NCBI GenBank assembly: GCA_045632165.1
Contig: JAZQWD010000082.1
Location: forward strand, 1 to 44,456
Direction of reading: 5' to 3'
Origin: Acutalibacteraceae bacterium
GTDB taxonomy: Bacteria > Bacillota > Clostridia > Oscillospirales > Acutalibacteraceae
DNA length: 44,456 nt
The translations under genes and the position numbers were made by a program. The notes below the pieces were generated by a model. That model did not search any database and was not told the origin of the DNA. It saw only the letters and a program-made list of their open reading frames with translations. Positions 16,619-40,850 of this stretch are shown one piece after another. Position 1 is the first letter of the stretch, and each line of letters begins with the position of its first letter.

Positions 16619-16654
16619 TCTTTAAATCGTCCTTTCCGAAAAATTTTGCAATAA

Positions 16655-18784: not shown

Positions 18785-18814
18785 ACCGAAAAATCCTTTC
18801 CGTTGCATTCCTAA

Positions 18815-20651: not shown

Positions 20652-23582
20652 TTATTTTTTATTTGGTTTTACGTTGTATTCTTCTTGTTTGTTGCGTAGC
20701 TCACGGTTAATTTCCTTAACGGCATTTTCCAATGCATCACGGGGTGAAGACGCACCCGAAACAACAACGTCGGTAAAAGCGTTAGTAACATAACGACCCG
20801 TATAATAACCACCAAGCACTACAGGGGTTTCCTGTGCCCATTTCCATTGTTCTTGAATAACCGCAAGGTCGCCCTTGTTCCAGTCAAGCGATAAAAATGC
20901 ATTAACGTTTGCGGTATTCCAACGGGCTTCTACACCTACAAGCGCTTCCATTTCTCTTGCATAATCCATTTGGGTGGTTTCCTGACTCCACCACTTAAGG
21001 AATTCCCAACCCGCCTTATATTTGGGGTCGCGGTCGTTTTTAAGAAGCATATCACATTCGCCTGCAATACCGCCACATGAACGGTTTATACTGCCATCCT
21101 GTTGCTTGATACCCGGAAGCGGCGCAATAGCCCATTTACCGATAAGCTCGGGTGCCGAGGTGCAAAGCTGAATGTAAAGCGAATAGTTCCCCACGCCTAT
21201 TGGCATTTCACCTGTACGGAAACGGTTAAAGAAGTTTGCACTTACAGGCGAACTGTAATGGGTAAACATTTCGGTATATTCGCGGAATGCTAAGAATGCC
21301 TGTGGCGTATTAAGTGCCGAGGTATAGCCATCCTCACTGTAATAAGCACCGCCGTATTGATACAAAAACTGTGTAAAGTCCATATTTTGGTAATATGAGA
21401 GGCCGTTTTCAAACAACTGCGGTAAGGTATAGTCGTACAATTCCTGACGTGTATTGGGAAGCATTATGTTATACTTTTCAATTACATCGCTACGGTAGAA
21501 AAGACAACTGAAATTCATTGTTTCGGGCATAGCATAAACGCCGCCCTCGTATGTAAAGGGAGTAATAATTTGCGGAACAAAGCGTGATGCAATTTCCTTA
21601 TAATCGGAAAATTGTGTTAAATCTACTGCGGCATCACGAATTGCAAATTCAACAGGCGAGCCCGAAGCCACACCCATTGCCACGTCAGGCGCTGTGCCCG
21701 ACGTCATTGAAAGCATAAGCACGTTGGCGCTGCCCGCATTAAGCTGTGAAGCGGGTACAACGTTTACGTTTACTAAAATACCGGTTTTTGGGGTAAAGCT
21801 TTCGTCAGCCATTTCCTTAATTATTTCCGCCCATTCGTTACCGCGTGCAATCCAAACATCGATAGTTTCGGTGATTTCGGTATCCTCGCCTAAAATACCA
21901 CCAACGTTGTTATAGTCCTTAACAAAGGAAATAAGGAAGTTTTTAATTGTACTGCGAAGCTTTTGGAAGAAATTAGATTTTCTTACAGGTATTTTAACGT
22001 CGGCCGTAGCAACTGTAAATTCGTCAATAAGCAAGGGCTGTGACTGTAATTCAAGATACCACGAGCCAAGATTTGTTTGCGCTTGGGTAAGTTGGGAATA
22101 TTTTTTAGCGATGGAAAAGGGATTATCCCTCATTCTTTTCAGCTGTTGTATAATAGATATCAAGTTACTACCCATACTGGTCGATTTGCCTGAAATAGCA
22201 TAAATTCGGTCATACTGTTCCTGCAAATCAGTAATAAGACGGTTCATATCGTCTTCTAAAGTGGGAATAAACTTGAAAAATTGATAGTCATAGTTGGGGT
22301 CGGGGTCACTGCCTGTTAATTTTGTAATATCAAGCAGCATTTCCGACAAAATTGTCATATCGTCATAAAGGGTGTGTATAATATCAGTTAATTCACCCAT
22401 TGTGACAGTCATTGTCATTGTGTGAGGGCCTTCTTCAAGATAGAAAAGGTAGTCACCATTATCGTCACCCAAGGTAACGGTTTGCCAATCTGTGCTGTAA
22501 TCAAAGCAAATTGATTCGAGTTCACTAAATGGTATTTCATTATCGATTTTAATTGTACGGTAAGACGGAAGACCGTCATTCCAGGACTGCTTTACACGAA
22601 ATGCCATACGGTAAAGGCCTGTTTCTTTCACATTAAATTCATAAGTAATCAATTGATTACCCTGTCGCCAACGGTAACCGCCCACGGTATTAAATACACG
22701 GTATCCATAAGCTATAGGCTTAGTTTCGGGGTCGCCGTCACTTTCAAGACGAATGGTAGCATCGTTACGGTTTACCATACTGTCTTCTGCTTGAAATGTT
22801 AATAACTGCTCCTTAATTTGTGATTTAGGATATGAAGCCGAAACCTTCTGATAGCTTTCAACCGGTATGAATGGTTCAACTACCAATTCAGAAATTGCCA
22901 TATCCTGTGAAGCATAGCCAAGGGTTAAAGTATGTTCGCCTATAGTCAAGGGGAAAATTAGCGGCGTTGTATAAAAACCGCCACTATCGCGCAAATAATC
23001 CTGTTGCCAACAAGCTATCGTTTCAACCGAAGGGCGCACCTCATCACCGATACTGTTTACCCTAACCTCGCCCGAATCCTTGAACGAATGATAAAAAGGT
23101 ATTGTGTCAGCTTCAAAACAGGGTGTCTTGCCATCAATAAGTAAAGAGCGAACCGCCTTACTTCCCGAAGTCTCTAAAACTGTGTAATTGGCTTTTATTA
23201 TATACCAGCCTTCAGTATTAATGGTAAATTTCCATTGTATATCACCTGTTTTAGCATCGGATAGAATTGCCTTTTCAGCATTACCGTTAATATCACTTTT
23301 AAGGGTAATGCCATCTGCGGCGGACGCAGCCGCCGCAGATAAAACTACCTTGTCCGTACCTTTAACATACGGATTGTTTTTTAAAACCTCTGAAAGAAAG
23401 GGCGCGCGGGTTCCGTCATCACTTAGAGTAATGTTTGTGCTGTCACCTTTGTCGCCGACAGTCGCCGTATAGGCCTTATCCGCTGAAGCGGAAATTGATA
23501 CCATAGTCATTAGCATAGCAGCTACACAACCTACTGATATCAGGCGCCTTAGAAGAAAACGCCTTTCGGGACTTGCTTTCAT
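20652..23582 (-). CDS. Giant (976 aa) extracellular solute-binding protein: signal peptide, two CBM6/35-like beta-sandwich modules, a helical linker and a C-terminal family-1 SBP domain
   Basis: The signal peptide ends ...SISASA/DKA and has no lipobox. Two modules show the pattern WKFTINTEGWYIIKANY...LLIDGK...LTIGEHTLTLGY and ITYEFNVKETGLYRMAFRVKQ...IKIDNE...WQTVTL..LEEGPHTMTMTV, which is typical of galactose-binding-like CBMs. The last 400 aa or so look like a CUT1 SBP (...VWIARGNEWAEIIKE...YAMPETMNF...GKWAIAPLPG...). Confidence 0.7.
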   Translation of the reverse strand: MKASPERRFLLRRLISVGCVAAMLMTMVSISASADKAYTATVGDKGDSTNITLSDDGTRAPFLSEVLKNNPYVKGTDKVVLSAAAASAADGITLKSDINGNAEKAILSDAKTGDIQWKFTINTEGWYIIKANYTVLETSGSKAVRSLLIDGKTPCFEADTIPFYHSFKDSGEVRVNSIGDEVRPSVETIACWQQDYLRDSGGFYTTPLIFPLTIGEHTLTLGYASQDMAISELVVEPFIPVESYQKVSASYPKSQIKEQLLTFQAEDSMVNRNDATIRLESDGDPETKPIAYGYRVFNTVGGYRWRQGNQLITYEFNVKETGLYRMAFRVKQSWNDGLPSYRTIKIDNEIPFSELESICFDYSTDWQTVTLGDDNGDYLFYLEEGPHTMTMTVTMGELTDIIHTLYDDMTILSEMLLDITKLTGSDPDPNYDYQFFKFIPTLEDDMNRLITDLQEQYDRIYAISGKSTSMGSNLISIIQQLKRMRDNPFSIAKKYSQLTQAQTNLGSWYLELQSQPLLIDEFTVATADVKIPVRKSNFFQKLRSTIKNFLISFVKDYNNVGGILGEDTEITETIDVWIARGNEWAEIIKEMADESFTPKTGILVNVNVVPASQLNAGSANVLMLSMTSGTAPDVAMGVASGSPVEFAIRDAAVDLTQFSDYKEIASRFVPQIITPFTYEGGVYAMPETMNFSCLFYRSDVIEKYNIMLPNTRQELYDYTLPQLFENGLSYYQNMDFTQFLYQYGGAYYSEDGYTSALNTPQAFLAFREYTEMFTHYSSPVSANFFNRFRTGEMPIGVGNYSLYIQLCTSAPELIGKWAIAPLPGIKQQDGSINRSCGGIAGECDMLLKNDRDPKYKAGWEFLKWWSQETTQMDYAREMEALVGVEARWNTANVNAFLSLDWNKGDLAVIQEQWKWAQETPVVLGGYYTGRYVTNAFTDVVVSGASSPRDALENAVKEINRELRNKQEEYNVKPNKK

Positions 23583-23596: not shown

Positions 23597-24871
23597 TCAG
23601 ATAATGTCAGTTAATTTAACACGTGTTAATTCCATAACTTCTTTTTGTTTAGAATAGAAAATATACATATAATCGTCCTGAATTAAAACTTCAGGATAAG
23701 CATAATAACCGTTCTTTGCCCAGCCGCTTTGCTGAAGCTCGTACTTTTCGTCACGCAAGATATATTCACGGTCCCAGTTATAGCCGTCGTCAGAAATTTG
23801 AAGAACTAACGGATAGCGGTTAGAGCCATAGCGTGAGGTGCCTACAAAATAGAAACGACCGTCGGGCAAGCGACCAAAGTTAGCCATTGTAGCTTCGGTT
23901 GCAAAGTTTGTGGGGTAAACGTCGGTAAAGGTTTCGCCGTTGTCATAGCTTTCGGTCATCCAAATGCGATTGGTGTCACTGCGTATCATAACGTGAATAA
24001 CATAATCGTCGGTTTGATACCAAGAAGCTTCTTGAAGAATATTTGCGCCACGGTCAAAACCTGACTGCTCCTGTTCTTTGGTTAAGCGGCCCACCTTCCA
24101 CATAAGCGAGCCGATATCATCGGTGTATATAACACCTGTACCCGCGCCCGCAAAATAACGGCCTGTAAGCGATTTCTTAGGTGATTCGTTAGCGCCTATA
24201 GAGACAACTGCGGGTTTACTCCAGGTTTTGCCATCGGTAGTGGATACAACCTTTGAAACGTATTTATAATACTTAATAATTTGCTTTATCCAGGTACCGT
24301 CAGCGCGGAAGTTATCAGGACCAAAATGAGCTTCACGATAATAGTAATAAAGCTTATTGGGAGTTGATACGAAAAATCCGCCCTGGTTTGCAGTCATACC
24401 AAAACCGCCGTCAACCGAAGGTCCTACAACTACCGGCTTGCTCCAATTATAAAAATCAGACGAGCTTGAAATTACAACAGATTGACCGGGAGAATCCTCG
24501 TCCTTAGCTGCCTGACCCCAAGCGGCATAAAACTTACCCTTAAAGTAAGCAAAGCCCGGTTGATGCTTAAAGCCGTTTTCTGACTCAAAATCAGAAACGA
24601 CAACCTTTTCTGAAGCAATTTTTTTGCTGTTTTTAAGCGCCTTTGAATTATCAACCTTTACAGCCGACTGCTGTATTGTAAGCTTTGGTGTAACAGGAAA
24701 TGTATCCTTCCATTCTTCGGGATTATATGTAACGGTAGAGCCCGAAGGTGTATCCGATGGATTATCGCCATTTGAGCCCGAAGAATTACCGCCGCAGCCC
24801 GCCAATGCCGATAACACTAAAATCATTGCCAGTCCGCGAAGCGCCACGCCTTTAAAACTAATAGGTTTCAT
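23597..24871 (-). CDS. Surface lipoprotein with a BNR/Asp-box sialidase-fold beta-propeller
   Basis: The lipobox is LSALAGC, followed by a Gly/Ser/Asn-rich linker. Asp-boxes are STTDGKTWS, SYDNGETFT, ISDDGYNWD and a degenerate SSSDFYNWS. No F/YRIP motif is present. I prefer ATG 24871 (MKPISF...) because the track GTG at 24880 lies inside a GAAAGGTGA RBS. Confidence 0.7.
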   Translation of the reverse strand: MKPISFKGVALRGLAMILVLSALAGCGGNSSGSNGDNPSDTPSGSTVTYNPEEWKDTFPVTPKLTIQQSAVKVDNSKALKNSKKIASEKVVVSDFESENGFKHQPGFAYFKGKFYAAWGQAAKDEDSPGQSVVISSSSDFYNWSKPVVVGPSVDGGFGMTANQGGFFVSTPNKLYYYYREAHFGPDNFRADGTWIKQIIKYYKYVSKVVSTTDGKTWSKPAVVSIGANESPKKSLTGRYFAGAGTGVIYTDDIGSLMWKVGRLTKEQEQSGFDRGANILQEASWYQTDDYVIHVMIRSDTNRIWMTESYDNGETFTDVYPTNFATEATMANFGRLPDGRFYFVGTSRYGSNRYPLVLQISDDGYNWDREYILRDEKYELQQSGWAKNGYYAYPEVLIQDDYMYIFYSKQKEVMELTRVKLTDII

Positions 24872-24886
24872 TATTTTCACCTTTCT

Positions 24887-26410
24887 TTAAGAATTACATT
24901 CCTTAAGAATTTCTTCAACGCCAAGTTTTTTCATTTCAGCTAAGAAGCTGTCAAATTCGGTAAGGCTGCGTGTGCCCTTAACAAATTTGATAATTTGTTG
25001 CTTAGCATAGGTGTTAATAGTATCGTAACGGGCAATCTTTTCGATACCAATATCAGGCTTGGTTTCACGCTTAGTTTCAAAGTTGCCTGCTTCAAAGTCC
25101 TTATCGTAAATATTAGCGTATTTCTTATCTAATTCATCTGTTTCATAATCTTCCCAAACAACACCCATATTATCATAGAAAGGCGCGAAGCAAAGCTGAC
25201 CAAGGCCTAAATCAGACATCCACTGATAGTTGGGCTGTGCAGCCTTTTCGTACTTCTTCCAAACAGACTTCGGAACATAAGGGTTGCCGTCCTTGTCAAG
25301 CTTATAGGTTTCGTCAAGCTTACCGTAAGTGTTGATAAGCATAGCTTCTTCAGAATAGCACCAGTCCATAAATTCTAAAAGTCTGTCGGGATATTTTGCC
25401 TTTGCGCTAAGGCAGTACTGAGTACCATAGTTGGTAAGCTGTGTCCAAGCAAGACCTTCCTTCTTGCCAAAAGAGTTGGTCATAAGGGGTAATGAGTTAA
25501 TGGTTGCATAGGGGTTAGTTTTTCTTAACTGTTCGGTTTGCATACTTGCAAGCACGCCGTTGTCTATCCAGAAGAAAACGTTGCCTGCCTGTACCTTCTT
25601 TTCAAAGCTGCTAGAGTCTGACATATCAAACTTGGGGTCAAGAATACCTTCGTTATAGGTTCTGATCATAAACTGTAATACGGTACGGAATTCTTCTTCC
25701 ATAACACCGCTTACATATTTTTTAGAATCCTCATCATAATGGATAAGGTAGTTCATACCTAAAGCCTGTGTCCAGTATTCAAGCAAATAACTACCAGAGC
25801 GGGTTGCAAAAGGTGTGCTGTTGGGATAAAGCTTTTTAAGCTTTTTCATAGTTTCAAACCATTCATCCCAAGTTTTAGGTGCTTTAAGATTATGGTTATC
25901 AAGTGTATCGTAACGGATAGCTAATTGCAAAGGGGTATCGGGATAATCGATATGGTGTAAACCAAATCCTAAATATTTGCCGTCAACCTTAGTGGATTCA
26001 AGACCTTCAATATCCTTAGTAAGCTTCCAATAATTAGGGGTCTTCTCTTCCATAATATTTGTAAGGTCCATAAACAAAGCACTGTTAAAGGTTTGAAGCT
26101 CGGAATGGGTGAGCATTGTAATATCATACATTTGACCCGATGCGTTTGCCGCAGCAAGCTTGGTTTGTGCTTCAGTACCTACACCGATATCAACGTCAAG
26201 CGTTACGCCTGTTGCTTCAGTAATAAGATTCCACTTCATAGCATCTGTTTTAATGGGCTGATATACGTGTTCCTTTAAAAATACGGTATAGGTTACGGGC
26301 TTGTCGGTATAAGCCGCAGTGTTGCTGCCACCCTTTTCTCCACCGCCGCAGCCTGCAAAAATGCAAGCAACCAAGCACATAGCTAAAACTATCGAAAGTA
26401 TTCGTTTCAT
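24887..26410 (-). CDS. Extracellular solute-binding lipoprotein (large family-1 SBP, about 507 aa)
   Basis: The lipobox is IFAGCGG. The size and composition are typical of Firmicute oligosaccharide SBPs. An AGGAG RBS is present. Confidence 0.8.
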   Translation of the reverse strand: MKRILSIVLAMCLVACIFAGCGGGEKGGSNTAAYTDKPVTYTVFLKEHVYQPIKTDAMKWNLITEATGVTLDVDIGVGTEAQTKLAAANASGQMYDITMLTHSELQTFNSALFMDLTNIMEEKTPNYWKLTKDIEGLESTKVDGKYLGFGLHHIDYPDTPLQLAIRYDTLDNHNLKAPKTWDEWFETMKKLKKLYPNSTPFATRSGSYLLEYWTQALGMNYLIHYDEDSKKYVSGVMEEEFRTVLQFMIRTYNEGILDPKFDMSDSSSFEKKVQAGNVFFWIDNGVLASMQTEQLRKTNPYATINSLPLMTNSFGKKEGLAWTQLTNYGTQYCLSAKAKYPDRLLEFMDWCYSEEAMLINTYGKLDETYKLDKDGNPYVPKSVWKKYEKAAQPNYQWMSDLGLGQLCFAPFYDNMGVVWEDYETDELDKKYANIYDKDFEAGNFETKRETKPDIGIEKIARYDTINTYAKQQIIKFVKGTRSLTEFDSFLAEMKKLGVEEILKECNS

Positions 26411-26441: not shown

Positions 26442-26478
26442 GCAGGAAAAGCAATACCTTGCCTTTCCTGCTTTTTTT
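26442..26478. other. Intercistronic stem-loop between the repeat-protein gene and the SBP gene
   Basis: The stem is 13 bp with one G-U pair: gcaggaaaagcaa (26442-26454) pairs with ttgcctttcctgc (26459-26471) around a 4-nt loop. The T7 run (26472-26478) follows the hairpin only on the plus strand. The surrounding genes are transcribed on the minus strand, where the hairpin is preceded by A7 and not followed by a U-tract. Confidence 0.4.
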
Positions 26479-26488: not shown

Positions 26489-29400
26489 TTAAGCGCGCTT
26501 TTTCTTAAAGATAATTATACCTGCTACTGTGCCGCCTGCTACAATTAAAATAGCTGCAACCACAATAATGGCAATAACTACAACGGGTAATTTACCCTTT
26601 TCCTTAACGTTGGTATCATCGTTCTTTTCGGTTTCATCATCGCTGCCTTCGGTAAGCTTGATATAATTTTCAATATCCTCTTCGCTTCTGAAAGCGCCTG
26701 CCCATTTAACGTAAACAGTGTCGCCTTCCTGCGCAAGTGTGTCAGAAACCAAGTCAAGCTTCAATGCGCTCCAATTGCCGTCAAAGAAGAATGCGGCAGT
26801 GGGGTCTGCAGTACAGTCAATAATAACGGTTTGCCATTCGCTTGTGGGATTATAGCCCAAAAGCTTAACCTGACAGTCAGCCGATTCAATATCGTCTGCA
26901 AGATATTTTTCAACTGAATAGGTTGTGCGGTAATGTGCCCAACCGCCTGTAAGACTATCCTTTGAAAGCTTAACACGTAATGCGATAAAGGGATAATCGG
27001 TTGCCTTAAGATTAGCATTAACAGGTATTTTATCTCCTAAAATGACACGACCTGGTGTAACAGTAACCGCGCCGTCTTCGTTAGTATCGGTTACAGTTAC
27101 CTTCATAGCATTAGCGGCAAAGTCATATTCAAACTTGGTGTCGCCTGCGACTGATACGTGGTTGTTTATAACGTCACCCTTTGAAAGATCCCAGAAGAAC
27201 TTTGTGGGTGCCTTGCCGTCGGGGTCAGTGGATGTGTTTTTCTTTGGATTTTCAATGCCCGCATATTCATAAGCATCATCAGCGCTTGCAAATACACCTG
27301 CCCATTGAATATAGAATACATCATCCTTTGTAGGAACAAGGTTAGTATCCATAAGCTTCATAATTAAGCCAAACCAAGTGCCTGTGTAGGCATCGTCATA
27401 AGCCTCATAGCCCTTGGCATCAATTATCATATATTGCCATTCATCAGTAGCGTTGTACTGTTCAATGGGAAGCTGTACACGGAATTTGGTAGGATATTTA
27501 GAATTTGTACCCGCCCAAACCGAATTAAGAACAGAGGAAACGTTCTTTGTCTTAATCTTCATTGCGAATACAGGATAATCAGCAACATTGATTGCTTCGC
27601 CACGATCATACAATGCAACAACACCTGCATTTTTATCCTTATAATTCTTAGGTTCTACCTTTAATGCTTTTTCGGTCTTGTCATAAGAAACCTTTGTGTT
27701 AGAGTTGCCGTCACCCGCTACGTCACCGTTTTCAATCCAACCTGTTGTGTCAAACGACTGTGTAAAGTTATAGAAGAAAGGCGAGGGGTTGGGGTCAACA
27801 TATTCGGGCGGTACTTCCATACCTGCATAGGTGTAAGCATCCTTTGCGGTTTTAAATGCGCCTGCCCATTTAATAAATACGTAATCCTTTTCAGTCGGAA
27901 CTGCTTTTTCACCCAAAAGTCTTAAAAGGAAGCCGTCCCAATTACCTGTATAATATTCATTTTTAAAGTTTGTACCGTCAAACAACAAAAGTTGCCATTC
28001 GTTGTTGTGCTTATAGGTCTTAAGCACGTTTGAAATCATAAACTTGCTTCCGCCGTCGGGACGGTCGGTACCGGGTAATAAGCCACCAAGTGCACGGTCG
28101 GGGTTATTAAGCTTAACCATAACCGCCATAACGGGATATTCCTTAACCGAAACGGTTGCGTTTGCAAGAATTGAAAGTCGGCCTGCCTTAATATTTTCAG
28201 TGTCGGCTGCGCCAAGCTTTAAGGCTTTTTCGGTATCGTCATAAGCAAATGCTGTATTAGAACCGCCTTCAGCAAAAATTATTTTATTACCAAGCCAAAC
28301 ATTTGTATCAATCTTATTTGAGAAATCATAGAAGAAAGGTGGTGTAAGTTCTTCTTCTTCAACAGGTTTTTCCATATCAGCATAAGCGTAAACATCGTCA
28401 ACAGTCTTAAATGCGCCTGCCCACTGAATCCAGAATGCTTCACCTTGAGTTGCTAACTCAGAGTCGGTAAGCAAACGGAAAAGCATCGCTTTCCATTGAC
28501 CCTTAAAACCCTTATTGCCTGCGTTATCAAGAATAATAAGTTGCCAATCGCCTGTGGTTGCGTGGGTTGATTGATTTAAAAGGTCAGGACCGGAATAAAC
28601 ATATTTTTCACCGCTGTTTTGGGTGCCTGCCCATATGCCTGCAAACCCTTCATTTTTGGTGTTAACCTTAATCTTAACCGCATAAATGGGATAATCTGCA
28701 GTGTTTGTGGTTGTATTATTAGCTTCAATTGCTAATCTTGCTGCTTGACCCTTTGTAAAATCTTGTGGTGAAATTTTAAGTGCACGTTTTACAGGGTCGT
28801 ATGTAAATACGGTATTACCGCCGCCTCCACTGTGAATCGGTATACCGGTTTTACTCTTTATGTATGATATAGTAGTAGCGTGGTCACTAAAGTTATAGAA
28901 AAATCCTGATGGATCTTCCTTTCCGCTACCGTCCCCTATTTCAGAAGTTTCGGCACCGTCAAGACCAAAGGACTTAATATAATACTGTTCGGCTTCTTCG
29001 GTTGTCTTAAATGCGCCTGCCCATTCTACCCAACAAACATCATCTTCGGTAGGAGTAACGTTATTCGCCATAAGACGAACAATCATACCGTACCATTGAC
29101 CCGAATAATATGTATCGGTTGATTTTCTTCCATCATATAAAAGTAATTCCCAATCACCTGTACGGCTGTAGGTTTGGCAAACATCCTTTGCCTTATACTT
29201 ACTTGAAGAGCCGTTATTGTAAGTACCCGGCCAAATGCCACCAAAAGGACGGGTTGTATTTTTAGTCTTAATTTTAATTGCAATTACGGGGTATTCCTTA
29301 ACCTCGATACCTGCATTGTTTGAACGAATTTCAAAACGCGCAGCATCAACTGCGGTTAAATCCTTAGGAGAAATTTTAACAGCGCCTTCGGTTGCATCGT

Positions 29401-30646
29401 AAGCAACTGTGGTGTTTTTACAGTCGCCTGCACCGATTTTGCCGTTTTTAATGTAAGCTGCAGCGTCATCAGCGTCGCTGAAATTATAAAGGAAGGGTGA
29501 TTCAGTTTCGCCGTAAGCGCAAGCTTCCTCAACTGTTTGGAAAACGCCTGCCCATTGAATCCACATAGCATCGCCTGCAGTTGCGGTAACATTATTGGCT
29601 GCTAAAGCACCAAGTATGGTGTTCCAAACGCCGCCATATTTCGGATTATTCATGCTTGAACCGTCAAATACAATTAACTGCCAATCGCCCGTTTCGGCAA
29701 TATCAGCTGCAACATAGCCTGTGCCGTAAATACTGCCGCCTTGACCGTGGTCACAGCCCGCAGCCATACCGCCGAAATTAAGGGCAGGGTTAGAAAATTT
29801 AACCTTCATAGCCATTACGGGGTATTTCGCAACTGTAGCCGCTTTGTTGCCGCCTGTAGGAATTCTGAAACGGTTAGCGTTTGTACCGGTTGATGTAATT
29901 TTAACTGCGCCTTCGTTTGTGTCGTAAGCAATGGTTGTACCGGCATCGTTAACAAGTCGGCCGTCTGCCATAAGCTTTTCAGCATCAGTTTTTTCAGTAA
30001 AATCATAAAAGAAAGGTGTGGGCGCCATTGAAGTATCATAAGCGTAAACCTCTTCAACCGACTTAAACACGCCTGCCCATTGAATCCAAGTATAGTCAGT
30101 ATCATTAGGAACATCGGCATCAGCCATTAAACGAACAATAATGCTGTCCCATTGGCCCTTATATCCTGCTCTGTCAGAATTTGTGCCATCATATATAATT
30201 AATTCCCAAGTACCTGTACGGTTGTATGTTGTACAAACATCACCGCTGGAATAAATGCTTGACTGACCGCTGTTTTTTGTGCCGGGCCAAATACCGCTGG
30301 TATTGCGGTTGCGGTTATTTGCCTTAACCTTAAATGCAATTACAGGGTAATCAGCCACGTTTGTGGTTTTGTTAGCCATACCCATTGTAAACTGACAAGC
30401 CTTGTTTTTTGTGATGTCTTTAGGTGAAACCTTAAGGGCTTGTTCCTGAGCATCATACTCAAACTTAGTGTTACCATTAAATTCAAGTATTCTAAGGCCA
30501 ACCCATTTGTCAGTTTCGGCTTTAGTTGTAAAATTATAAAGCGCGGGGGAAGTTGTAGCAGTTTCATTTGCAAACGTTGTAAAAGATACTGCGCAGCAGG
30601 TAGCAACTAATGCTACTACACATAAAATCGCTAATAGTTTTTTCAT
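26489..30646 (-). CDS. 1385-aa cell-surface protein: signal peptide, 7 tandem domains of about 175-200 aa from an unrecognised family, an acidic linker and a C-terminal TM anchor
   Basis: The signal peptide is MKKLLAILCVVALVATCCAVSFTTFA/NE. There are seven copies of a module with four recurring elements: PFFY(N/D)F at its start, YP(V/I)xAxK(V/I)K, W(E/Q)L(I/L)(I/L)(Y/F)DG, and a terminal W(I/V)(Q/E/K)WAG(V/A)F(K/Q)(S/T)xE(E/D)xYxY. The C-terminus is KEKGKLPVVVIAIIVVAAILIVAGGTVAGIIIFKKKRA. An AGGAGG RBS is present. Confidence 0.85.
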   Translation of the reverse strand: MKKLLAILCVVALVATCCAVSFTTFANETATTSPALYNFTTKAETDKWVGLRILEFNGNTKFEYDAQEQALKVSPKDITKNKACQFTMGMANKTTNVADYPVIAFKVKANNRNRNTSGIWPGTKNSGQSSIYSSGDVCTTYNRTGTWELIIYDGTNSDRAGYKGQWDSIIVRLMADADVPNDTDYTWIQWAGVFKSVEEVYAYDTSMAPTPFFYDFTEKTDAEKLMADGRLVNDAGTTIAYDTNEGAVKITSTGTNANRFRIPTGGNKAATVAKYPVMAMKVKFSNPALNFGGMAAGCDHGQGGSIYGTGYVAADIAETGDWQLIVFDGSSMNNPKYGGVWNTILGALAANNVTATAGDAMWIQWAGVFQTVEEACAYGETESPFLYNFSDADDAAAYIKNGKIGAGDCKNTTVAYDATEGAVKISPKDLTAVDAARFEIRSNNAGIEVKEYPVIAIKIKTKNTTRPFGGIWPGTYNNGSSSKYKAKDVCQTYSRTGDWELLLYDGRKSTDTYYSGQWYGMIVRLMANNVTPTEDDVCWVEWAGAFKTTEEAEQYYIKSFGLDGAETSEIGDGSGKEDPSGFFYNFSDHATTISYIKSKTGIPIHSGGGGNTVFTYDPVKRALKISPQDFTKGQAARLAIEANNTTTNTADYPIYAVKIKVNTKNEGFAGIWAGTQNSGEKYVYSGPDLLNQSTHATTGDWQLIILDNAGNKGFKGQWKAMLFRLLTDSELATQGEAFWIQWAGAFKTVDDVYAYADMEKPVEEEELTPPFFYDFSNKIDTNVWLGNKIIFAEGGSNTAFAYDDTEKALKLGAADTENIKAGRLSILANATVSVKEYPVMAVMVKLNNPDRALGGLLPGTDRPDGGSKFMISNVLKTYKHNNEWQLLLFDGTNFKNEYYTGNWDGFLLRLLGEKAVPTEKDYVFIKWAGAFKTAKDAYTYAGMEVPPEYVDPNPSPFFYNFTQSFDTTGWIENGDVAGDGNSNTKVSYDKTEKALKVEPKNYKDKNAGVVALYDRGEAINVADYPVFAMKIKTKNVSSVLNSVWAGTNSKYPTKFRVQLPIEQYNATDEWQYMIIDAKGYEAYDDAYTGTWFGLIMKLMDTNLVPTKDDVFYIQWAGVFASADDAYEYAGIENPKKNTSTDPDGKAPTKFFWDLSKGDVINNHVSVAGDTKFEYDFAANAMKVTVTDTNEDGAVTVTPGRVILGDKIPVNANLKATDYPFIALRVKLSKDSLTGGWAHYRTTYSVEKYLADDIESADCQVKLLGYNPTSEWQTVIIDCTADPTAAFFFDGNWSALKLDLVSDTLAQEGDTVYVKWAGAFRSEEDIENYIKLTEGSDDETEKNDDTNVKEKGKLPVVVIAIIVVAAILIVAGGTVAGIIIFKKKRA
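26660..30547 (-). repeat. Seven tandem protein-domain repeats (period 525-600 nt) inside the surface-protein gene
   Basis: The WxxWAG codon block (plus-strand gcctgcccaNNNNNNcca-like) occurs at 30071, 29546, 29015, 28415, 27860, 27296 and 26696. The spacings are 525, 531, 600, 555, 564 and 600 nt. Confidence 0.85.
30010..30646 (-). repeat. Left arm of an inverted duplication (5-prime end and first domain of the repeat-protein gene)
   Basis: The reverse complement aligns colinearly with 43098-43735. By eye, identity is roughly 80-88 percent. Exact runs of about 19-29 nt include atgaaaaaactattagcgattttatgt, gaaactgctacaacttcccccgcgcttta and ggtatggctaacaaaaccacaaa. Confidence 0.8.
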
Positions 30647-30667
30647 ATTTACGCCTCCTATTTTAAT

Positions 30668-32860: not shown

Positions 32861-32894
32861 TCAACTGTAAAAATGTACGGTGGAGGTCCTTAGA

Positions 32895-33923
32895 TTGAGC
32901 TTTGATAACCGTGGAATTATTATAGCAGGCAATATTATAACCGATGTTGTTAAAACCGTTGACTGTTATCCTCAAATCGGTATGCTTGCCAATATTTCAA
33001 GCGTTAGTCGTGCGGTTGGCGGTTGTGTTCCCAATACAGCAATTGACCTTAAAAAAATTGACGATAATATAAAGGTTTCGGCCATAGGTAAAATCGGTAA
33101 CGATGATAGCGGCGAGTATATACTTTCACAGTTTAAACGCTATGGAATTTTGTTTGACAAGGTTAAGCGTTCTCAAACAAAACCGACAAGCTTTAGCGAT
33201 GTAATAAGTTTACCATCAGGTGAACGCACCTTCTTTCACGCAAGGGGTGCTAATGCTGAGTTTTCACCCAAGGATATTGATTTAGACAACCTCGAATGCG
33301 ATATTTTTCATATTGGTTACATACTCTTACTTGACAGTATGGACAAAGCTGACAATGAATATGGTACCGCTATGGCGCGTCTTTTAAAGTCTGTTCAGGA
33401 AAAAGGAATTAAAACCTCTATTGATGTTGTAAGTGACAGTACTGCCGATTATAAAGCAAAAATCGTTCCTGCGCTTAAATATAGTAATTATGCCATTATG
33501 AACGAGGTTGAAAGCTGTATGCTGTCAGATTTAAGCCCATATAATGCCGACAAATCAATAAATACCGAAAATATTCGCAAAACAATGGAAGCTATGGCCG
33601 AATACGGTGTTAAGGACAAAGTTATTATACACTGTAAGGATGCCGGTTTTTGCTATGATGTACAGTCTCAAAGCTTTACTGCTGTTTCCTCTTTGAATAT
33701 TCCGAAAGAGGAAATCCTTGGCAGTGTTGGAGCTGGTGATGCATTTTGTGCAGGTGCACTTTACGGTATTTATAACCATTTTACAGATTATGAAATTTTA
33801 AACTTTGCTTCAGCCGCCGCTGCTTGCAATTTGTTTTGCGAAAATTCAGTTGATGGTATGAAGTCAAGAGAAGAAATTTATAAAATTGCTAAAAAATATG
33901 GCAGGAAAGAGGATGTATTATGA
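32895..33923 (+). CDS. PfkB family carbohydrate (ketose or ketose-phosphate) kinase
   Basis: The nucleotide-site motif is GSVGAGDAFCAGALYG. The N-terminal sugar-site block is GGCVPNTAIDL...IGKIGNDDSG. I prefer TTG 32895, 8 nt after GGAGG, over the track GTG at 32880. Confidence 0.75.
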   Translation: MSFDNRGIIIAGNIITDVVKTVDCYPQIGMLANISSVSRAVGGCVPNTAIDLKKIDDNIKVSAIGKIGNDDSGEYILSQFKRYGILFDKVKRSQTKPTSFSDVISLPSGERTFFHARGANAEFSPKDIDLDNLECDIFHIGYILLLDSMDKADNEYGTAMARLLKSVQEKGIKTSIDVVSDSTADYKAKIVPALKYSNYAIMNEVESCMLSDLSPYNADKSINTENIRKTMEAMAEYGVKDKVIIHCKDAGFCYDVQSQSFTAVSSLNIPKEEILGSVGAGDAFCAGALYGIYNHFTDYEILNFASAAAACNLFCENSVDGMKSREEIYKIAKKYGRKEDVL

Positions 33924-34756
33924 TAGTAAATCTCAACGATGTGCTTAAAAAAGCGCAAGCCGAGCATTATGGTGTGGGTCTTTTCAATACTACAGATACC
34001 GATATGGCTGAAGCGGTAATTTCTGCAGCTGAAGAAATGAATTCACCCGTTATAATCGGTACTGCTGAAGTGCTTTTGCCTTATGGCGAATTAAAACTCA
34101 TTGCACCTTCAATTCGTGCGTTAGCTGAACGAGCAAAGGTTCCCGTTGTGCTACATTACGACCACGGTTTAACCTTTGACCGTTGTATTGAGGCCTTAAA
34201 ACTTGGCTTTTCAAGTATTATGTTTGATGGTTCTGCAGGGGACAGCAAACAAAATATTGCCAACACAGCCGAAATAGTTAAAATTGCACATTCCTTTGGT
34301 GCTTCGGTTGAAGGCGAAATCGGTCATGTTGGTCAGGCTTCAAGCGGTGATGGCGAGCTTACAAACATGTATACCACACCCGAAGAAGCTAGAGCTTTTG
34401 TTGAAGCAACCGGTGTTGATGCTTTGGCTGTTGCAATAGGTACGGCTCACGGTATTTATAAAACAAAACCTCGTTTGGATATTGAAAGACTTAAAGAAAT
34501 TCGCGCTGCTATTGATACTCCTTTGGTGCTTCATGGCGGTTCAGGGTTAAGTGATGACGATTTCAGAAATACAATTGCAGGCGGTATTGCCAAGGTTAAT
34601 ATATTTACTGATCTTTGTGTTGCCGGTGTTCGCGCTATGGAGAAGGGTATTGCCGAGAATAAAGACTACCTTGAAATACGCAATATGAAGGTTTTAGAAA
34701 TCAAAAATACCGTAATGAAAAAAATGGAGCTTTTTGGCTCTAAAGATAAGGCATAA
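33920..34756 (+). CDS. Class II (metal-dependent) ketose-bisphosphate aldolase (FBA/tagatose-bisphosphate aldolase family)
   Basis: Supporting motifs are HYDHG, FDGS, EGEIGHVG and VLHGGSG. The ATGA start/stop overlap with the kinase gene implies translational coupling. Confidence 0.85.
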   Translation: MIVNLNDVLKKAQAEHYGVGLFNTTDTDMAEAVISAAEEMNSPVIIGTAEVLLPYGELKLIAPSIRALAERAKVPVVLHYDHGLTFDRCIEALKLGFSSIMFDGSAGDSKQNIANTAEIVKIAHSFGASVEGEIGHVGQASSGDGELTNMYTTPEEARAFVEATGVDALAVAIGTAHGIYKTKPRLDIERLKEIRAAIDTPLVLHGGSGLSDDDFRNTIAGGIAKVNIFTDLCVAGVRAMEKGIAENKDYLEIRNMKVLEIKNTVMKKMELFGSKDKA

Positions 34757-34786
34757 ATAAGATATTATTTTTAAGGAGAATGAACT

Positions 34787-35734
34787 ATGGATTTTAACTC
34801 AACTGTAAAAGGTTCAGCACTCGAAGGCTTTTATCCTGCAGGGTGGGACTTTGAAAAAATTGATGCTTGTATTGATACCCCTGAAACTATTACCGAACAT
34901 CAAGCACATTGGAATAAGGATTTTACACCCATTAAGTGCGACAGTCTTGGTGAATTTGAGACCTATATGGGTCACGAAATTGCAATGCAAATAAAGCTTG
35001 CCAAAGAAAGAAATGAAAAAATCGCTTTCATTTTACCCGTTGGCCCTATGGGTATGTATAAATGGGTTGTATATTTCTTAAAAGCTTGGAATGTTTCTTG
35101 CAATCATGTTTACACCTTTAATATGGATGAATGGGCCGATGGTGAAGGAAACACACTTCCTTCGGATAATACAGGATCCTTTAAATATGCTATGGAACAA
35201 GCATTGTTTGGCCCTTTGGGTGAGCTTACCGTTCCTGAAAATCAACGTAACTTTGCCCTTAAGGATAATCTTCCTACATACCCTGAAAAAATTGCTAAAT
35301 TAAAGGCCGAAGGCGCAAAGCTTGTTTTAGTTTATGGTATTGGCAGAATGTGCCATATAGCTTTCTGGGAACCCACCTTTGCGGCCGATTATAACACTGC
35401 TGAAGAATGGGAAGCAGCACCTTATAGGATTGGTGCTAAAATTCATCCCTTAACTGTTGAGCAAAACGCTTTAACAAGCTTTAAATCAAGAACACCGCTT
35501 GTTCCTTGCCGAGCAAATACAATTGGCCCCGGCATATTCTTAAAGGCCGATTATGCAATTGGTGGTGCGGATGGTATACTTGGTCGCGGAATGCAATGGC
35601 AAGGTCTTTCACTTTGGATGACACTTCGCCACGAAAAAACCCCTTGGATTACTTCGACATATATTCCCACAATTCCCGGCAAGCTTTTCTTCCTTAAAGA
35701 GCTTGCAGGTCCACTTGAAGCTGAATGTAACTAA
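34787..35734 (+). CDS. NagB/AgaI-like sugar-6-phosphate deaminase/isomerase family protein (atypical, 315 aa)
   Basis: FILPVGPMG matches LGLPTGGTP, TFNMDEW matches TFNMDEY, and [13 protein letters not shown] matches GVGNDGHIAFNEP of E. coli NagB. The Asp/His/Glu positions are conserved. There is an extra N-terminal region of about 70 aa. Confidence 0.7.
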
Positions 35735-35767
35735 ATATAACTATCATACTGCAAAGGAGTATATTAA

Positions 35768-36490
35768 ATGAATGTTTTAGCAATTGGTTGTCATCCTGAT
35801 GACGTAGAATGTGGTTGTAGCGGTACACTTGCAAAATGCGTAAAACGCGGCGACAAGGTTATTGTTTGTCATGCATCAACCGGCAATTTGGGACATGTTG
35901 TAATCCCACCCGAAGAACTGATTAAAATTCGTGCAAACGAAGCCAAAAAAGCAGGCTCACTTGCAGGTATTGAGGTTATTTGTGCAGGCTTTAACGACCT
36001 TGAACTTTATGACAACAATAAAGAAGCCCGCGACAAGATTGTTGATATTATTCGTTACGCTAACCCCGATTTTATAATTACACAAAACCCAGACGATTAT
36101 ATGCCTGACCATACGGCAATTTCGCGCTTGGTTTTTGACGCCAGCTTTGCCGCTACCCTTCCTAATTATAAATATAAGGCGCACTTCAGCAATCCCAATG
36201 ACCCGCCCGCAAAATTAGTGCCTATTTTTTATATGGACCCCACCGCAGGCGTTAATTTCGTGCCTGAATTTTTTGTTGATATAAGTGAAGAAATCGATTT
36301 AAAAATGGAAATGCTTGAGTGTCACGAAAGTCAGCTTGTTTGGATGCGTGACCACGACAACATCGACTTTGCTGACTTTATAAAAACCTGCTCACGTTTC
36401 CGCGGTTATCAATGCGGTGCCGAATACGCTGAAGGCTTCCGTCAATGCAAGGCATACCTTAAAGGCACAACCGAAAGATTATTACCTTAA
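35768..36490 (+). CDS. PIG-L/LmbE family N-acetyl-sugar deacetylase
   Basis: VLAIGCHPDDVECGCSG is the (A/C)HPDDxE zinc motif. A downstream MPDHTA motif is also present. Confidence 0.85.
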   Translation: MNVLAIGCHPDDVECGCSGTLAKCVKRGDKVIVCHASTGNLGHVVIPPEELIKIRANEAKKAGSLAGIEVICAGFNDLELYDNNKEARDKIVDIIRYANPDFIITQNPDDYMPDHTAISRLVFDASFAATLPNYKYKAHFSNPNDPPAKLVPIFYMDPTAGVNFVPEFFVDISEEIDLKMEMLECHESQLVWMRDHDNIDFADFIKTCSRFRGYQCGAEYAEGFRQCKAYLKGTTERLLP

Positions 36491-36496
36491 AAATTT

Positions 36497-36547
36497 AAAA
36501 ATCAGATACATTATTCTTTTGAAAAAATGTATCTGATTTTTTTATTT
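36497..36547 (+). terminator. Rho-independent terminator after the amino-sugar operon
   Basis: The stem is 15 bp: aaaatcagatacatt (36497-36511) pairs with aatgtatctgatttt (36526-36540). It is followed by tttatttt. Confidence 0.75.
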
Positions 36548-36673
36548 TCAATGAACAAAATTAGCTCTGATAAAAAAATGAGCTAATTTTATAAAAACGA
36601 GCCTATTTTCTAAAGACAAATTTTTGTTATTGTGTTATTTTAATAATGTAAAAACATAAAAGGAGAGATTTTT

Positions 36674-38581
36674 ATGAAGCTTCGTCCCCCCGCTTATCCG
36701 TTAATTACAGTTGACCCTTATTTTAATATTTGGGCAATGAACGACAAACTTAATGCCGACCACACGCGTTTTTGGACCGGTGATCGAACAATGTTGCTTG
36801 GGAAAGCAACCATTGACGAGAAAACCTTTGTTTTTATGGGTTCGGCCGAAGAAATGCAATTACCCCCTATGAACCAAGTAAGTGTAGATGTCACAACCTT
36901 CACAACAAAATACATTTTTGAAGCTGCAGGCGTAATGCTAACTGCCACCTTCACAACCCCAATTTTGCCTGATGACCTAGCACTTGCTTCTCGCCCCGTT
37001 TCTTATTTACATATAGAAGTAGGTTCTACTGACGGTAAAAACCATACCGTATCAGTTGAGGTTAAAGCTTCCGAAGAGTTTTGTATGGAAAATTATGAAG
37101 ATCTTGGTGTAAACGTTAACCAAATAAAAGTCTCCCCTTCTATTTCTGCTATGCGTATTGGCGGTATTGAGCAAGCAATTCTCGGAAAATCAGGTGATGG
37201 CATTGGAATTGACTGGGGATATTTTTATCTTGCAATTAAAGATGGTGAACTATCAACCGATGAAGAATTCAAACGCGTTTTCGTTTCCGCTAAAAAATCA
37301 CTTGATACAAATGAAAATCAAACTGCTTTATTTGCTTTTGCTTACGATGATATTAAATCTATCGTGTACTTCGGCAACCAACTTGATGCCTATTGGAAGT
37401 CACAAGGCAAAACCATTGAACAAGAAATTGAAGCTGCTTTTTTAGAATATGAATCACTTATGCTTCGTACAAAAGCATTTCACGACAAACTTTTTTCAGA
37501 TGCAACCACTGCCGGTGGTGAAAAATATGCCGAACTTCTTGTTTTAGCACTTCGCCAAGTTATGGCAGCACATAAATTAGTGGTGGATACTGAAGGTAAA
37601 TTACTTTTCATTTCAAAAGAGTGCTTTTCTAACGGATGTGCCGCCACCACTGACGTAAGTTATCCTTCTATTCCTTTGTTCTTAATTTATAATACCGAGC
37701 TAGCAAAGGGTATTATGCGACCGATTATGCATTATTCCGCAAGTGAACATTGGCCCTATCCCTTCGCTCCACATGATGTGGGTAGATATCCTATTCTTAA
37801 CGGTCAAGCCTATAGCCGTGGCACAAAACCTGCATGGCAAATGCCGGTTGAAGAATGCGGAAATATGCTTTTGATGGCCTCTGCTGTAGCTTTAGCCGAA
37901 AAAAATACCGATTTCGTCACAGAACATAAGGAATTGCTTGATAAATGGGCTGAATATTTAGTTGAAAACGGATTAGATCCGGAAAGTCAAGTAACCTCTG
38001 ATGACTTTGCAGGCCATATCGCTCACAACTGTAATCTATCGCTTAAAGCATTAATGGCGCTTGGCGGATATGCAAAGATTTGCGAAATAATGAATGAACC
38101 CGATAAATCTCAAAAATACCGTAGCGCCGCCGAAGAAATGGCAAAATTTTGGATTGAAAACGCCGCAAACGGTGACGGCAGTTTCCGTTTAGCATTTGAC
38201 CGCCCCGATAGCTTTAGTATGAAATATAACGCTGTTTGGGATAAAATTTTCGGCTTAAGTCTTTTACCAAAAGACGCAATACAATCAGAACTCAATAGCT
38301 ATGTGCAAAAAGCAAATCCTTATGGTATACAACTAATTGACACTTCAGATTTCACAAATTCAGGTTGGATTGCATGGACCGCCACTATGGCTGATACACA
38401 AGAATTATTTAGCAAATTAATGGACCCCGTGTGGCTTTGCTTCCATATTTCACCCTCTCGCGTGCCCTTGGCGGACTGGTATTCATCAGTTACATCTATT
38501 AAGCTTGCAGGACAAAACCGTACTGTTCAAGGCGCATTATTTATGAAATTATTAGATTATAAGAAAATTTGTCACTTTTAA
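36674..38581 (+). CDS. DUF4965/DUF1793 (glutaminase-A-like) protein, paralogue of 3835-5736, cytoplasmic
   Basis: It is colinear with the first copy. EKYAELLVLALRQVMAAHKLVVD..ISKECFSNGCAATTDVSYPSIPLFLIYNTEL is about 70 percent identical in the core. An AAGGAGAG RBS is present. Confidence 0.65.
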   Translation: MKLRPPAYPLITVDPYFNIWAMNDKLNADHTRFWTGDRTMLLGKATIDEKTFVFMGSAEEMQLPPMNQVSVDVTTFTTKYIFEAAGVMLTATFTTPILPDDLALASRPVSYLHIEVGSTDGKNHTVSVEVKASEEFCMENYEDLGVNVNQIKVSPSISAMRIGGIEQAILGKSGDGIGIDWGYFYLAIKDGELSTDEEFKRVFVSAKKSLDTNENQTALFAFAYDDIKSIVYFGNQLDAYWKSQGKTIEQEIEAAFLEYESLMLRTKAFHDKLFSDATTAGGEKYAELLVLALRQVMAAHKLVVDTEGKLLFISKECFSNGCAATTDVSYPSIPLFLIYNTELAKGIMRPIMHYSASEHWPYPFAPHDVGRYPILNGQAYSRGTKPAWQMPVEECGNMLLMASAVALAEKNTDFVTEHKELLDKWAEYLVENGLDPESQVTSDDFAGHIAHNCNLSLKALMALGGYAKICEIMNEPDKSQKYRSAAEEMAKFWIENAANGDGSFRLAFDRPDSFSMKYNAVWDKIFGLSLLPKDAIQSELNSYVQKANPYGIQLIDTSDFTNSGWIAWTATMADTQELFSKLMDPVWLCFHISPSRVPLADWYSSVTSIKLAGQNRTVQGALFMKLLDYKKICHF

Positions 38582-38600
38582 TTGTGTAAAGGAGTAAAAA

Positions 38601-39716: not shown

Positions 39717-39752
39717 TAAACTGAACTTTAATAATTTTGAAAAAGGTGTTTT

Positions 39753-40607: not shown

Positions 40608-40626
40608 ATCACCAGATTATTTTAAA

Positions 40627-40661
40627 AAAGAAAGCCTCTTTAAAAGAAGCTTTCTTTTTTT
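40627..40661 (+). terminator. Rho-independent terminator after the DMT transporter gene
   Basis: aaagaaagc (40627-40635) pairs with gctttcttt (40649-40657), with extra inner pairs. A T-run follows. Confidence 0.65.
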
Positions 40662-40726
40662 ATTAAGAATAAAACCAAAAGCGAGCATTTAAGTCATATA
40701 AAAACAAAAAATGTCCATCACAAGTA

Positions 40727-40740
40727 GCAAAATGGCGAGA
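40727..40740 (+). promoter_or_regulatory. Second copy of the GCA(A/T)AATGGCGAGA element
   Basis: gcaaaatggcgaga lies immediately upstream of the predicted promoter of the SIS-led operon. It matches the minus-strand copy at 31689-31702. Confidence 0.3.
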
Positions 40741-40744
40741 ATAT

Positions 40745-40773: not shown

Positions 40774-40850
40774 AGATAATGTATCAATTAGACTTTCAAC
40801 CAAATTTGCTTTGGTATGAAATTCTATTTTTCAAAAAAAGGGTGATGTTT

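Follow-up and report, generated by a model that had tools for sequence, protein, structure and literature searches.

What is the role of the large repetitive protein encoded at positions 26,489 to 30,646, on the minus strand, of contig JAZQWD010000082.1 from an Acutalibacteraceae bacterium (assembly GCA_045632165.1; positions 1 to 44,456, the whole stretch that was analysed, are called the window below)? The protein, of 1385 amino acids (aa), carries seven copies of a module between a signal peptide and a C-terminal membrane anchor. On balance, we favour the view that it is a multivalent surface protein which captures glycan through modules of a candidate carbohydrate-binding module (CBM)-type family, in the service of a propeller enzyme and of the ATP-binding cassette (ABC) importers of its operon. 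Real support for a glycan-related role comes from the CBM-like fold predicted for the module and from its fusions, in relatives, to sialidase-fold propellers, SGNH esterases, glycoside hydrolase (GH) family 106 domains and dockerins.

Architecture and maintenance of the module array

The ORF list and the translation show a single ATG-to-stop open reading frame (ORF), and the plus-strand reading is ruled out by stops throughout its translation. The modules, R1 to R7, were delimited by hmmsearch with a hidden Markov model built from the repeats.

26489-30646, minus strand: whole gene, encoding the signal peptide, seven modules, acidic linker, transmembrane helix and KKKRA tail; stop codon at 26489-26491
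30654-30659, minus strand: AGGAGG ribosome-binding site, 7 nt 5' of the ATG, read from the upstream sequence
30569-30646, minus strand: signal peptide, aa 1-26, MKKLLAILCVVALVATCCAVSFTTFA, long and hydrophobic, read from sequence, probably cleaved after TFA
30020-30550, minus strand: module R1, aa 33-209, distal type (hmmsearch); 94-95% identical to R1 of the relatives P0001 and P0002, with a ratio of non-synonymous to synonymous substitution rates (dN/dS) of 0.03-0.04
29501-30019, minus strand: module R2, aa 210-382, distal type (hmmsearch, orthologue comparison, dN/dS)
28961-29500, minus strand: module R3, aa 383-562, distal type, the one modelled (hmmsearch, AlphaFold2)
28361-28909, minus strand: module R4, aa 580-762, distal type (hmmsearch), with a 17-aa Gly/Asp/Glu-rich linker in front
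27806-28342, minus strand: module R5, aa 769-947, distal type (hmmsearch, orthologue comparison, dN/dS)
27242-27784, minus strand: module R6, aa 955-1135, distal type (hmmsearch); its nearest outside module is the first module of P0034, at 40-44% identity
26642-27205, minus strand: module R7, aa 1148-1335, distinct anchor-proximal subtype (hmmsearch, module clustering)
26591-26641, minus strand: acidic linker, aa 1336-1352, DDETEKNDDTNVKEKGK, read from sequence
26492-26590, minus strand: C-terminal transmembrane helix, aa 1353-1380 (28 hydrophobic residues), and basic tail KKKRA, aa 1381-1385, read from sequence

A preliminary description of this gene, made from the letters alone, had given the same gene ends and left the strand unstated. 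The anatomy it proposed (1385 aa, signal peptide, seven modules, acidic linker, transmembrane helix, KKKRA, no LPXTG) was confirmed by the ORF, by hmmsearch and by a regular expression. The strong AGGAGG ribosome-binding site is present as described, and the gene is indeed preceded by another, a ribokinase gene lying 21 nt upstream. The signal peptide is retained in orthologues and paralogues, and its N-terminus (aa 1-16) weakly matches an NCBIfam lipoprotein-signal model. No LPXTG was found in the 1385-aa protein (regular expression LP.T[GAS]), though the hydrophobic segment and the KKKRA tail are present, and anchoring by sortase (LPXTG), S-layer homology (SLH) or cohesin domains was rejected on sequence. 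Since the protein has both a signal peptide and a C-terminal transmembrane anchor, a surface location is the natural reading, and we take it to be secreted and C-terminally anchored in the membrane. NCBI contains an identical protein sequence, whose cluster mates are annotated 'hypothetical protein'.

The repeat is far beyond chance, as blastp gives a significant match for each of the 21 module pairs (E 1e-12 to 1e-52, 26-46% identity). At the DNA level, Tandem Repeats Finder detected no tandem repeat in the gene and blastn between modules returned only short patches at the conserved motifs, which fits an old array. The motifs given at first were approximately right but idealised: the strict signature W-[IV]-x-W-A-G-[VA]-F is found in four of the seven modules, R5 to R7 starting with F or Y instead, and the openings deviate from PFFY(N/D)F in R1 (PALYNF), R4 (GFFYNF) and R7 (KFFWDL). 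Four residues, A40, W160, G162 and F164 (R3 numbering), are invariant in a set of 37 diverse modules, conserved aromatics are W92, a Y or F near position 104 and W136, and W-x-G-x-F is kept in 215 of the 310 module instances of the wider family.

All seven copies announced by the preliminary description are there, but they are not equivalent, R7 being of a different subtype. Clustering of the 310 module instances placed R1 to R6 together, in a group whose 80 instances come from 22 proteins and never adjoin a membrane anchor. R7 went to another group, of 19 instances, which come from as many proteins and are in every case the last copy. Sixteen of these 19 R7-type copies, R7 included, immediately precede a transmembrane anchor. 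R7 is 40-46% identical to its ten nearest R7-type copies, versus 26-30% to its own R1-R6 (blastp), and R7-like last modules occur in otherwise very different proteins (P0010, P0016, P0018, P0019, P0022, P0023, P0027 and P0051). The array is composed of six distal-type modules and one distinct anchor-proximal module.

Distant family members carry varied parts ahead of the same transmembrane anchor. In P0052 and P0063, a leucine-rich-repeat-like N-terminal part of about 1100 aa comes before one or two modules and the anchor, and in P0031, P0032 and P0045 this place is taken by N-terminal repeats and an SGNH esterase; the repeats of P0031, the one of these three that was scanned, match the 3-keto-disaccharide-hydrolase-like (DUF1080) family. 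Judged by sequence, the anchor-proximal module would be part of a 'module plus anchor' cassette that can be reused.

How has the array been maintained? Each module matches, one to one, the module in the same position of the closest orthologues, with 76-98% identity versus 25-45% between paralogous modules; two nine-module orthologues are collinear over the R3-R7 part and have a different N-terminal part. When compared with two orthologous genes, every module has a dN/dS of 0.03-0.11. Positional orthology and these low ratios bear out the view, put forward in the preliminary description, of an old, maintained array. A recent tandem duplication was rejected, as Tandem Repeats Finder finds nothing and the modules are positional orthologues under purifying selection. 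R4 has a dS of 1.6-1.9 and a dN of 0.16, versus 0.46-0.8 and 0.01-0.09 in the remaining modules, with dN/dS close to 0.1 in all of them, and this two- to three-fold excess in dS suggests module-level recombination, that is, single-module replacement or recombination between lineages. The R7 subtype, the positional orthology and purifying selection of each module, and the fusion to a propeller in 17 relatives (see below) are new with respect to what had been described.

Predicted fold and relatives of the module

To which family does the module belong? Pfam gave no match for the whole protein at E<=1, DUF4979 and cohesin included, NCBIfam gave noise only, and a profile of 37 modules found 0 matches at E<=10 among all PDB chain sequences. 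R3 alone reached Pfam DUF4979 (PF16351) with 19.0 bits (E 0.0018), a sub-threshold score (gathering cut-off 28.9), in an alignment that is nearly full-length (profile positions 48-163 of 165). Only 3 of the 37 modules matched DUF4979 at E<=10, and the family is marked faint or weak in the precomputed matches for about half of the close homologues. The modules fall below the Pfam threshold for membership of DUF4979. It is the sole curated family touched by any module, but it is uncharacterised, so that the link explains nothing of the module's function. The one mention that we found in the literature presents DUF4979 as an uncharacterised non-catalytic domain that is often attached to glycoside hydrolases in metagenomes (PMC6626019). 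The expression 'unrecognised domain', used at first, holds in so far as no curated family is matched at threshold, and should be softened on account of the DUF4979 match, the only one returned by the single-repeat profile scan of R3 that had been advised. The domain had also been said to fit no CBM, immunoglobulin-like, SLH or cohesin-type family known to its describer, and no functionally characterised CBM, cohesin, SLH or immunoglobulin-like family was matched.

The structure prediction and fold search advised at the same time were run on R3 and returned a confident beta-jelly-roll with CBMs as its nearest folds. The AlphaFold2 model, built with the 37-module alignment (predicted local distance difference test, pLDDT, 95.6; predicted template modelling score 0.91), is a compact nine-strand beta-sandwich that has a short helix at its N-terminus and a helix at its C-terminus, and in which the signature W-x-x-W-A-G-x-F forms the last strand. 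In a Foldseek search of PDB, the nearest solved folds are mostly CBMs (CBM86, 6sgf; CBM29, 1wcu; CBM27, 1of4; CBM30, 1wmx), with a probability of about 1.0 for most of the CBM matches; further matches are CBM4, CBM22, CBM6, BT0996-C and the calreticulin lectin domain. The search of viral structures was uninformative, giving only generic jelly-roll, tail-fibre and esterase-appended domains (TM-score <=0.56). A catalytic jelly-roll of the GH16 type was rejected, the laminarinase folds being low-ranking matches (probability 0.63-0.75) and no acidic residue being invariant. The residues that are invariant among the 37 modules (A, W, G and F) are of non-catalytic types and so form no catalytic signature.

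The discrete autonomous fold that figures among the CAZy criteria for a CBM is predicted for the module, and the occurrence within carbohydrate-active enzymes that also figures there is observed in relatives; the seven-module protein itself has no catalytic domain. No sequence similarity was found to the structurally solved CBM families (86, 29, 27, 30, 4, 22, 6, 32, 40 and others), CAZy families that have neither a structure nor a Pfam model lying outside this comparison. The module is, by its model, a candidate new CBM-type family of jelly-roll fold, outside every structurally known family. Like the module as predicted, CBM86 (Roseburia intestinalis Xyn10A, 6sgf), CBM29, CBM27, CBM30, CBM4 and CBM22 are non-catalytic jelly-rolls of similar size, which gut Clostridia carry on carbohydrate-active enzymes within proteins attached to the cell. 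However, there is no sequence relationship with them and the TM-scores are only 0.4-0.55, and the module differs by its extra N- and C-terminal helices, by the W-x-G-x-F signature of its C-terminal strand and by its arrays of up to nine copies among close homologues.

A word-indexed search of 5.8 billion proteins retrieved 17 relatives, and an exhaustive profile search of 1.84 billion representatives retrieved 182 clusters at E<=0.001, 50 of them at E<=1e-30; a family with 182 clusters among so many representatives is rare. Single copies of the module and arrays of up to at least 9 were both seen among the proteins examined. Family distribution and repeat-number variation are what the preliminary description had wished to see defined. 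The named members are proteins of metagenome-assembled genomes (MAGs) of Clostridia, Oscillospiraceae or Ruminococcaceae, annotated 'hypothetical protein' or, for the enzyme fusions, 'exo-alpha-sialidase'. A related-locus search with the full protein retrieved two loci only, both from one Oscillospiraceae MAG, and the closest genome record is an Oscillospiraceae MAG with 87% identity.

The architectures of these relatives are varied. In the more distant ones, which use the module in the manner of a CBM, a Pfam scan showed fusion to a BNR_2/BT_1020-like propeller for 8 of 9 proteins, and blastp for 17 proteins; the other fusion partners are SGNH esterases, GH106 rhamnosidase (in three of the weak family matches), dockerins and choline-binding repeats, and P0072, P0076, P0079 and P0081 combine a single module with an enzyme. 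At the C-terminus, relatives display a transmembrane helix and basic tail after the last module (40 members), dockerins, choline-binding repeats or Cys-rich repeats. Dockerins occur in at least ten family members, confirmed by Pfam in P0039, P0058 and P0064 and read from sequence in P0013-P0015, P0020, P0041, P0042 and P0050. P0013-P0015 and P0020, which are close paralogues from related organisms, consist of four modules, a domain of about 200 aa of unknown type and a dockerin-like end; that of P0013 has no Pfam match and was read from sequence. Such ends would imply that cohesin-bearing partners exist in the lineage.

The operon and its sialidase-fold propeller

The seven-module gene is the second of a long minus-strand operon, divergent from an AraC regulator gene, and the genes that matter most for its interpretation are the following.

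23597-24880, minus strand: 427-aa lipoprotein (lipobox LAGC), two genes downstream, predicted six-bladed sialidase-fold propeller; Pfam BNR_2 (4e-23) and Beta-prop_BT_1020 (5e-11)
24887-26410, minus strand: 507-aa solute-binding lipoprotein of an ABC importer, the next gene; Pfam SBP_bac_1, lipobox FAGC, synteny kept in the related loci L001 and L003
43098-44456, plus strand: second family member, cut off at the window end; signal peptide followed by two full modules and the beginning of another (translation, hmmsearch)

Over about 370 aa, the 427-aa lipoprotein shares 33-53% identity with the propellers that are fused to the module in 17 representative proteins. P0034 starts with a module that resembles R6 (44%), continues with one that resembles R7 (40%) and then has a propeller with 53% identity to the 427-aa lipoprotein, a Rosetta-stone fusion which argues for a functional link between the seven-module protein and this propeller enzyme. 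The AlphaFold2 model of the lipoprotein has a pLDDT of 90.6, and its nearest folds by Foldseek are GH33 sialidases, Dfer_1899 and BT_1020 (TM-scores 0.61-0.66; E 9e-16 for NanA and 1e-14 for BT_1020). A phmmer search of PDB gave E 1e-5 to 'exo-alpha-sialidase' entries (8axs and related) and 6e-5 to BT_1020. The sequence contains four Asp-box-like motifs, and the alignment of its clade has many invariant Arg, Tyr, Glu and Asp columns. The lipoprotein is modelled as a six-bladed propeller of the sialidase superfamily, and its clade may, by its sequences, be a glycosidase family that has yet to be described. BNR_2 paralogues that lack a signal peptide are encoded at two other places, 10643-11587 (minus strand) and 41948-43072 (plus strand).

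CBM40 and CBM32 of sialidases (GH33 NanJ and NanH, Micromonospora sialidase) are likewise non-catalytic beta-sandwiches on a six-bladed propeller, as in the 17 relatives. However, CBM40 is absent from the top 50 fold matches of R3, CBM32 appears there as a weak generic match (2w1s, rank 42) and there is no Pfam match. Moreover, the partner propeller forms a clade separate from GH33 and BT_1020/GH143 (12-17% identity), and modules and enzyme are here separate polypeptides.

Downstream of the seven-module gene come, in this order, genes for the solute-binding lipoprotein and the propeller lipoprotein, then for a 976-aa binding protein, a pair of permeases, an NHL/Yip1 membrane protein, a DUF5696 protein and a second pair of permeases, and last for a DHDPS-family aldolase, a cytoplasmic BNR_2 protein, a YhcH-family protein, GH43, AraC and a GDSL esterase. 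The operon carries two ABC importers with solute-binding lipoproteins, and its gene order is conserved in three other assemblies. Apart from the seven-module protein, the operon products with a signal sequence, among those whose N-terminus was read, are just the binding proteins, the DUF5696 protein, the NHL/Yip1 protein and the 427-aa propeller.

The second family member is 64% identical to aa 1-440 of the seven-module protein (77% at the DNA level over 900 nt) and 91% identical to P0009, which consists of three modules and a C-terminal domain of unknown type; P0008, a close relative of P0009, has in addition Cys-rich repeats in its C-terminal part. It directly follows the cytoplasmic BNR_2 gene at 41948-43072 (plus strand), an arrangement also present in another MAG. 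A six-frame hmmsearch of the window found no module copies outside these two genes, the 976-aa binding protein included.

Several further observations were made at the locus. Directly 3' of the stop codon of the seven-module gene, the 78-nt gap contains a perfect 13-bp hairpin with a 4-nt loop and no U tract (26442-26471, minus strand; dG -21.7 kcal/mol, z -4.2), and the orthologous locus L001 has a 9-bp version of this hairpin; it may be an intercistronic stabiliser or attenuator that modulates relative expression. In the 976-aa secreted protein (20652-23582, minus strand) the SBP_bac_8 match covers only aa 594-876, and the first 590 or so residues have no Pfam match. Between the permease pairs, 14417-18808 (minus strand) encodes an NHL-repeat/TPR/Yip1 membrane protein of 717 aa and the DUF5696 protein, of 733 aa, in an order kept in L001 and L003; we found no paper on DUF5696. 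The flanks of the operon (1961-7617 and 32880-43072, plus strand) encode two GtaA_6_Hairpin/DUF5127/DUF4964 proteins (636 and 635 aa), three GFO/IDH/MocA oxidoreductases (one GH109-like), two xylose-isomerase-like TIM-barrel proteins, a PIG-L deacetylase, a class II aldolase, a second PfkB kinase, and SIS and RbsD/FucU proteins, the last two assigned from the syntenic locus L002. These flank genes look like a catabolic set of the oxidative or 3-keto-glycoside type.

Proposed glycan capture and its alternatives

How would such a protein work? It would be a type I membrane-anchored protein at the cell surface of a Gram-positive member of the Oscillospiraceae, its ectodomain made of seven non-catalytic beta-jelly-roll modules. 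R1 to R6, each diverged and individually conserved, would retain a complex glycan at the cell surface by multivalent binding, and the fact that they have diverged while keeping their positions suggests that they recognise different epitopes or have different affinities. R7 would link the array with the membrane anchor or with the wall zone. By a rough estimate, the extended array of seven modules of about 4 nm, with linkers, would measure about 30 nm, enough to cross a Gram-positive wall. The captured polymer would be trimmed by the co-encoded 427-aa sialidase-fold lipoprotein, its products would enter the cell via the two ABC importers of the operon, and cytoplasmic enzymes would finish them. 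The ligand would probably be the substrate of the propeller. Because of the propeller fold and of the aldolase, YhcH and kinase genes, our guess, and it is a weak one, is a glycan that carries a 2-keto-3-deoxy (ulosonic or sialic-type) sugar acid.

Several results weigh against this interpretation. The likeness of R3 to known CBMs is at the level of the fold only (TM-scores 0.4-0.55, identity 8-16% by Foldseek), and a beta-jelly-roll can also act as a spacer, as a lectin-like binder of proteins or, as among the viral fold matches, as a receptor-binding domain of phages. The most conserved residues of the module appear core-like rather than part of a ligand site. The cluster to which R1-R6 belong (22 proteins) is fused to a catalytic domain once only, in P0034. 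As for the ligand, it is deduced from a propeller only 12-17% identical to GH33 sialidases and BT_1020/GH143, which no NCBIfam model matches, and the DHDPS-family gene is not a NanA equivalog according to NCBIfam.

Could the modules do something other than bind a nutrient glycan? Core-like conserved residues (W, G, F, A) would also suit a structural stalk, in which rigid, non-binding beta-sandwich units span the Gram-positive wall or, in the manner of X-modules, position their neighbours (propeller, esterase, dockerin). R7-type copies do adjoin transmembrane anchors or a catalytic domain whatever lies upstream, and the module is also present in proteins whose other parts could bind (leucine-rich repeats, 3-keto-disaccharide-hydrolase-like lectin folds). 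We nevertheless consider a stalk unlikely: the seven-module protein, having modules only, would display no functional head, its six divergent modules are each under strong purifying selection with positional orthology, whereas simple spacers usually homogenise or vary freely, and the nearest folds are mostly CBMs. An adhesin, whose modules would serve colonisation or co-aggregation by attaching to host tissue, mucus, feed particles or other microbes and would not feed the adjacent transport and catabolism, appears slightly less likely still. Gram-positive adhesins typically have long, repeated and anchored ectodomains, the viral fold matches include phage tail and receptor-binding proteins, and some relatives have choline-binding or leucine-rich-repeat parts. 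However, the gene lies within a conserved catabolic operon, after the ribokinase gene and before the solute-binding and enzyme genes, and the fusions involve carbohydrate-active domains. Besides, sticking to the glycan substrate would amount to the capture mechanism itself, and an adhesin would be distinct only if its target differed from the substrate of the operon.

The dockerins of at least ten family members raise the question of a cohesin-like scaffold, in which the modules would dock dockerin-bearing proteins, some of them module-carrying paralogues, into a cell-anchored enzyme complex. Tandem beta-sandwiches with a cell anchor resemble an anchoring scaffoldin, and the Oscillospiraceae include cellulosome producers. 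Yet Pfam finds no cohesin at E<=1, none is among the top 50 PDB fold matches, and the proteins that combine a single module with an enzyme (P0072, P0076, P0079, P0081) follow the pattern of a CBM and not that of a cohesin. The cohesins of one scaffoldin are also usually far less divergent than these modules, and we regard this explanation as very improbable. Cellulosomal scaffoldins and sortase-anchored repeat adhesins share with the seven-module protein a long tethered ectodomain of repeated beta-sandwiches, and dockerins are found in relatives of the module, but the protein has no cohesin or LPXTG signature, and its repeats are 25-46% identical with no tandem repeat at the DNA level.

For the glycan-capture protein that we favour, the closest functional analogues would be the tandem-CBM surface glycan-binding proteins of Bacteroidota, SusE/SusF and SGBP-B (7kwb, rank 43 among the Foldseek matches of R3). 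In both cases a non-catalytic, tandem CBM-like surface protein is encoded in a glycan locus beside a transporter and a surface enzyme. The analogy is functional only, since SusE/F and SGBP-B are outer-membrane lipoproteins of diderms that work with SusC/D TonB-dependent transport, whereas the seven-module protein has a monoderm host, a C-terminal transmembrane anchor, ABC importers and seven modules. Indeed, there are no SusC or SusD genes at the locus, where the transporters are ABC systems.

A bolder proposal can be made, which we hold only tentatively and would sooner doubt than defend. In uncultured Oscillospiraceae of the rumen or gut, a new CBM family and a new clade of sialidase-fold glycosidases, which might itself be a new GH family, would have evolved together. 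The seven-module protein would be the Gram-positive counterpart of SusE/F, with six differently tuned modules for different epitopes of one complex ulosonic-acid-bearing glycan and with the seventh, of a dedicated type, coupling them to the anchor or wall. We found no papers on a new CBM family associated with a sialidase, nor on tandem-CBM surface proteins of Oscillospiraceae.

In conclusion, our analysis defines a module that is well delimited, confidently foldable, uncatalogued and rare, and that is CBM-like by its genomic associations. Its gene-fusion link to a specific clade of sialidase-fold enzymes provides a testable ligand hypothesis, and the natural series of architectures (1 to at least 9 modules; transmembrane anchor, dockerin, choline-binding and enzyme fusions) is useful for dissecting multivalency. 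The finding is incremental rather than field-changing in either outcome, holds no surprise in kind, and should concern specialists of carbohydrate enzymes and of the gut microbiome. Uncultured Oscillospiraceae have a major part in glycan degradation in the rumen and gut but are poorly understood, and the capture of polymers at the surface of Gram-positives is much less described than in Bacteroidota. If the modules do bind carbohydrate, a CBM family would be added and the assignment of the partner enzyme family would probably be helped; if they do not, a new structural module of Gram-positive surface proteins would have been defined.

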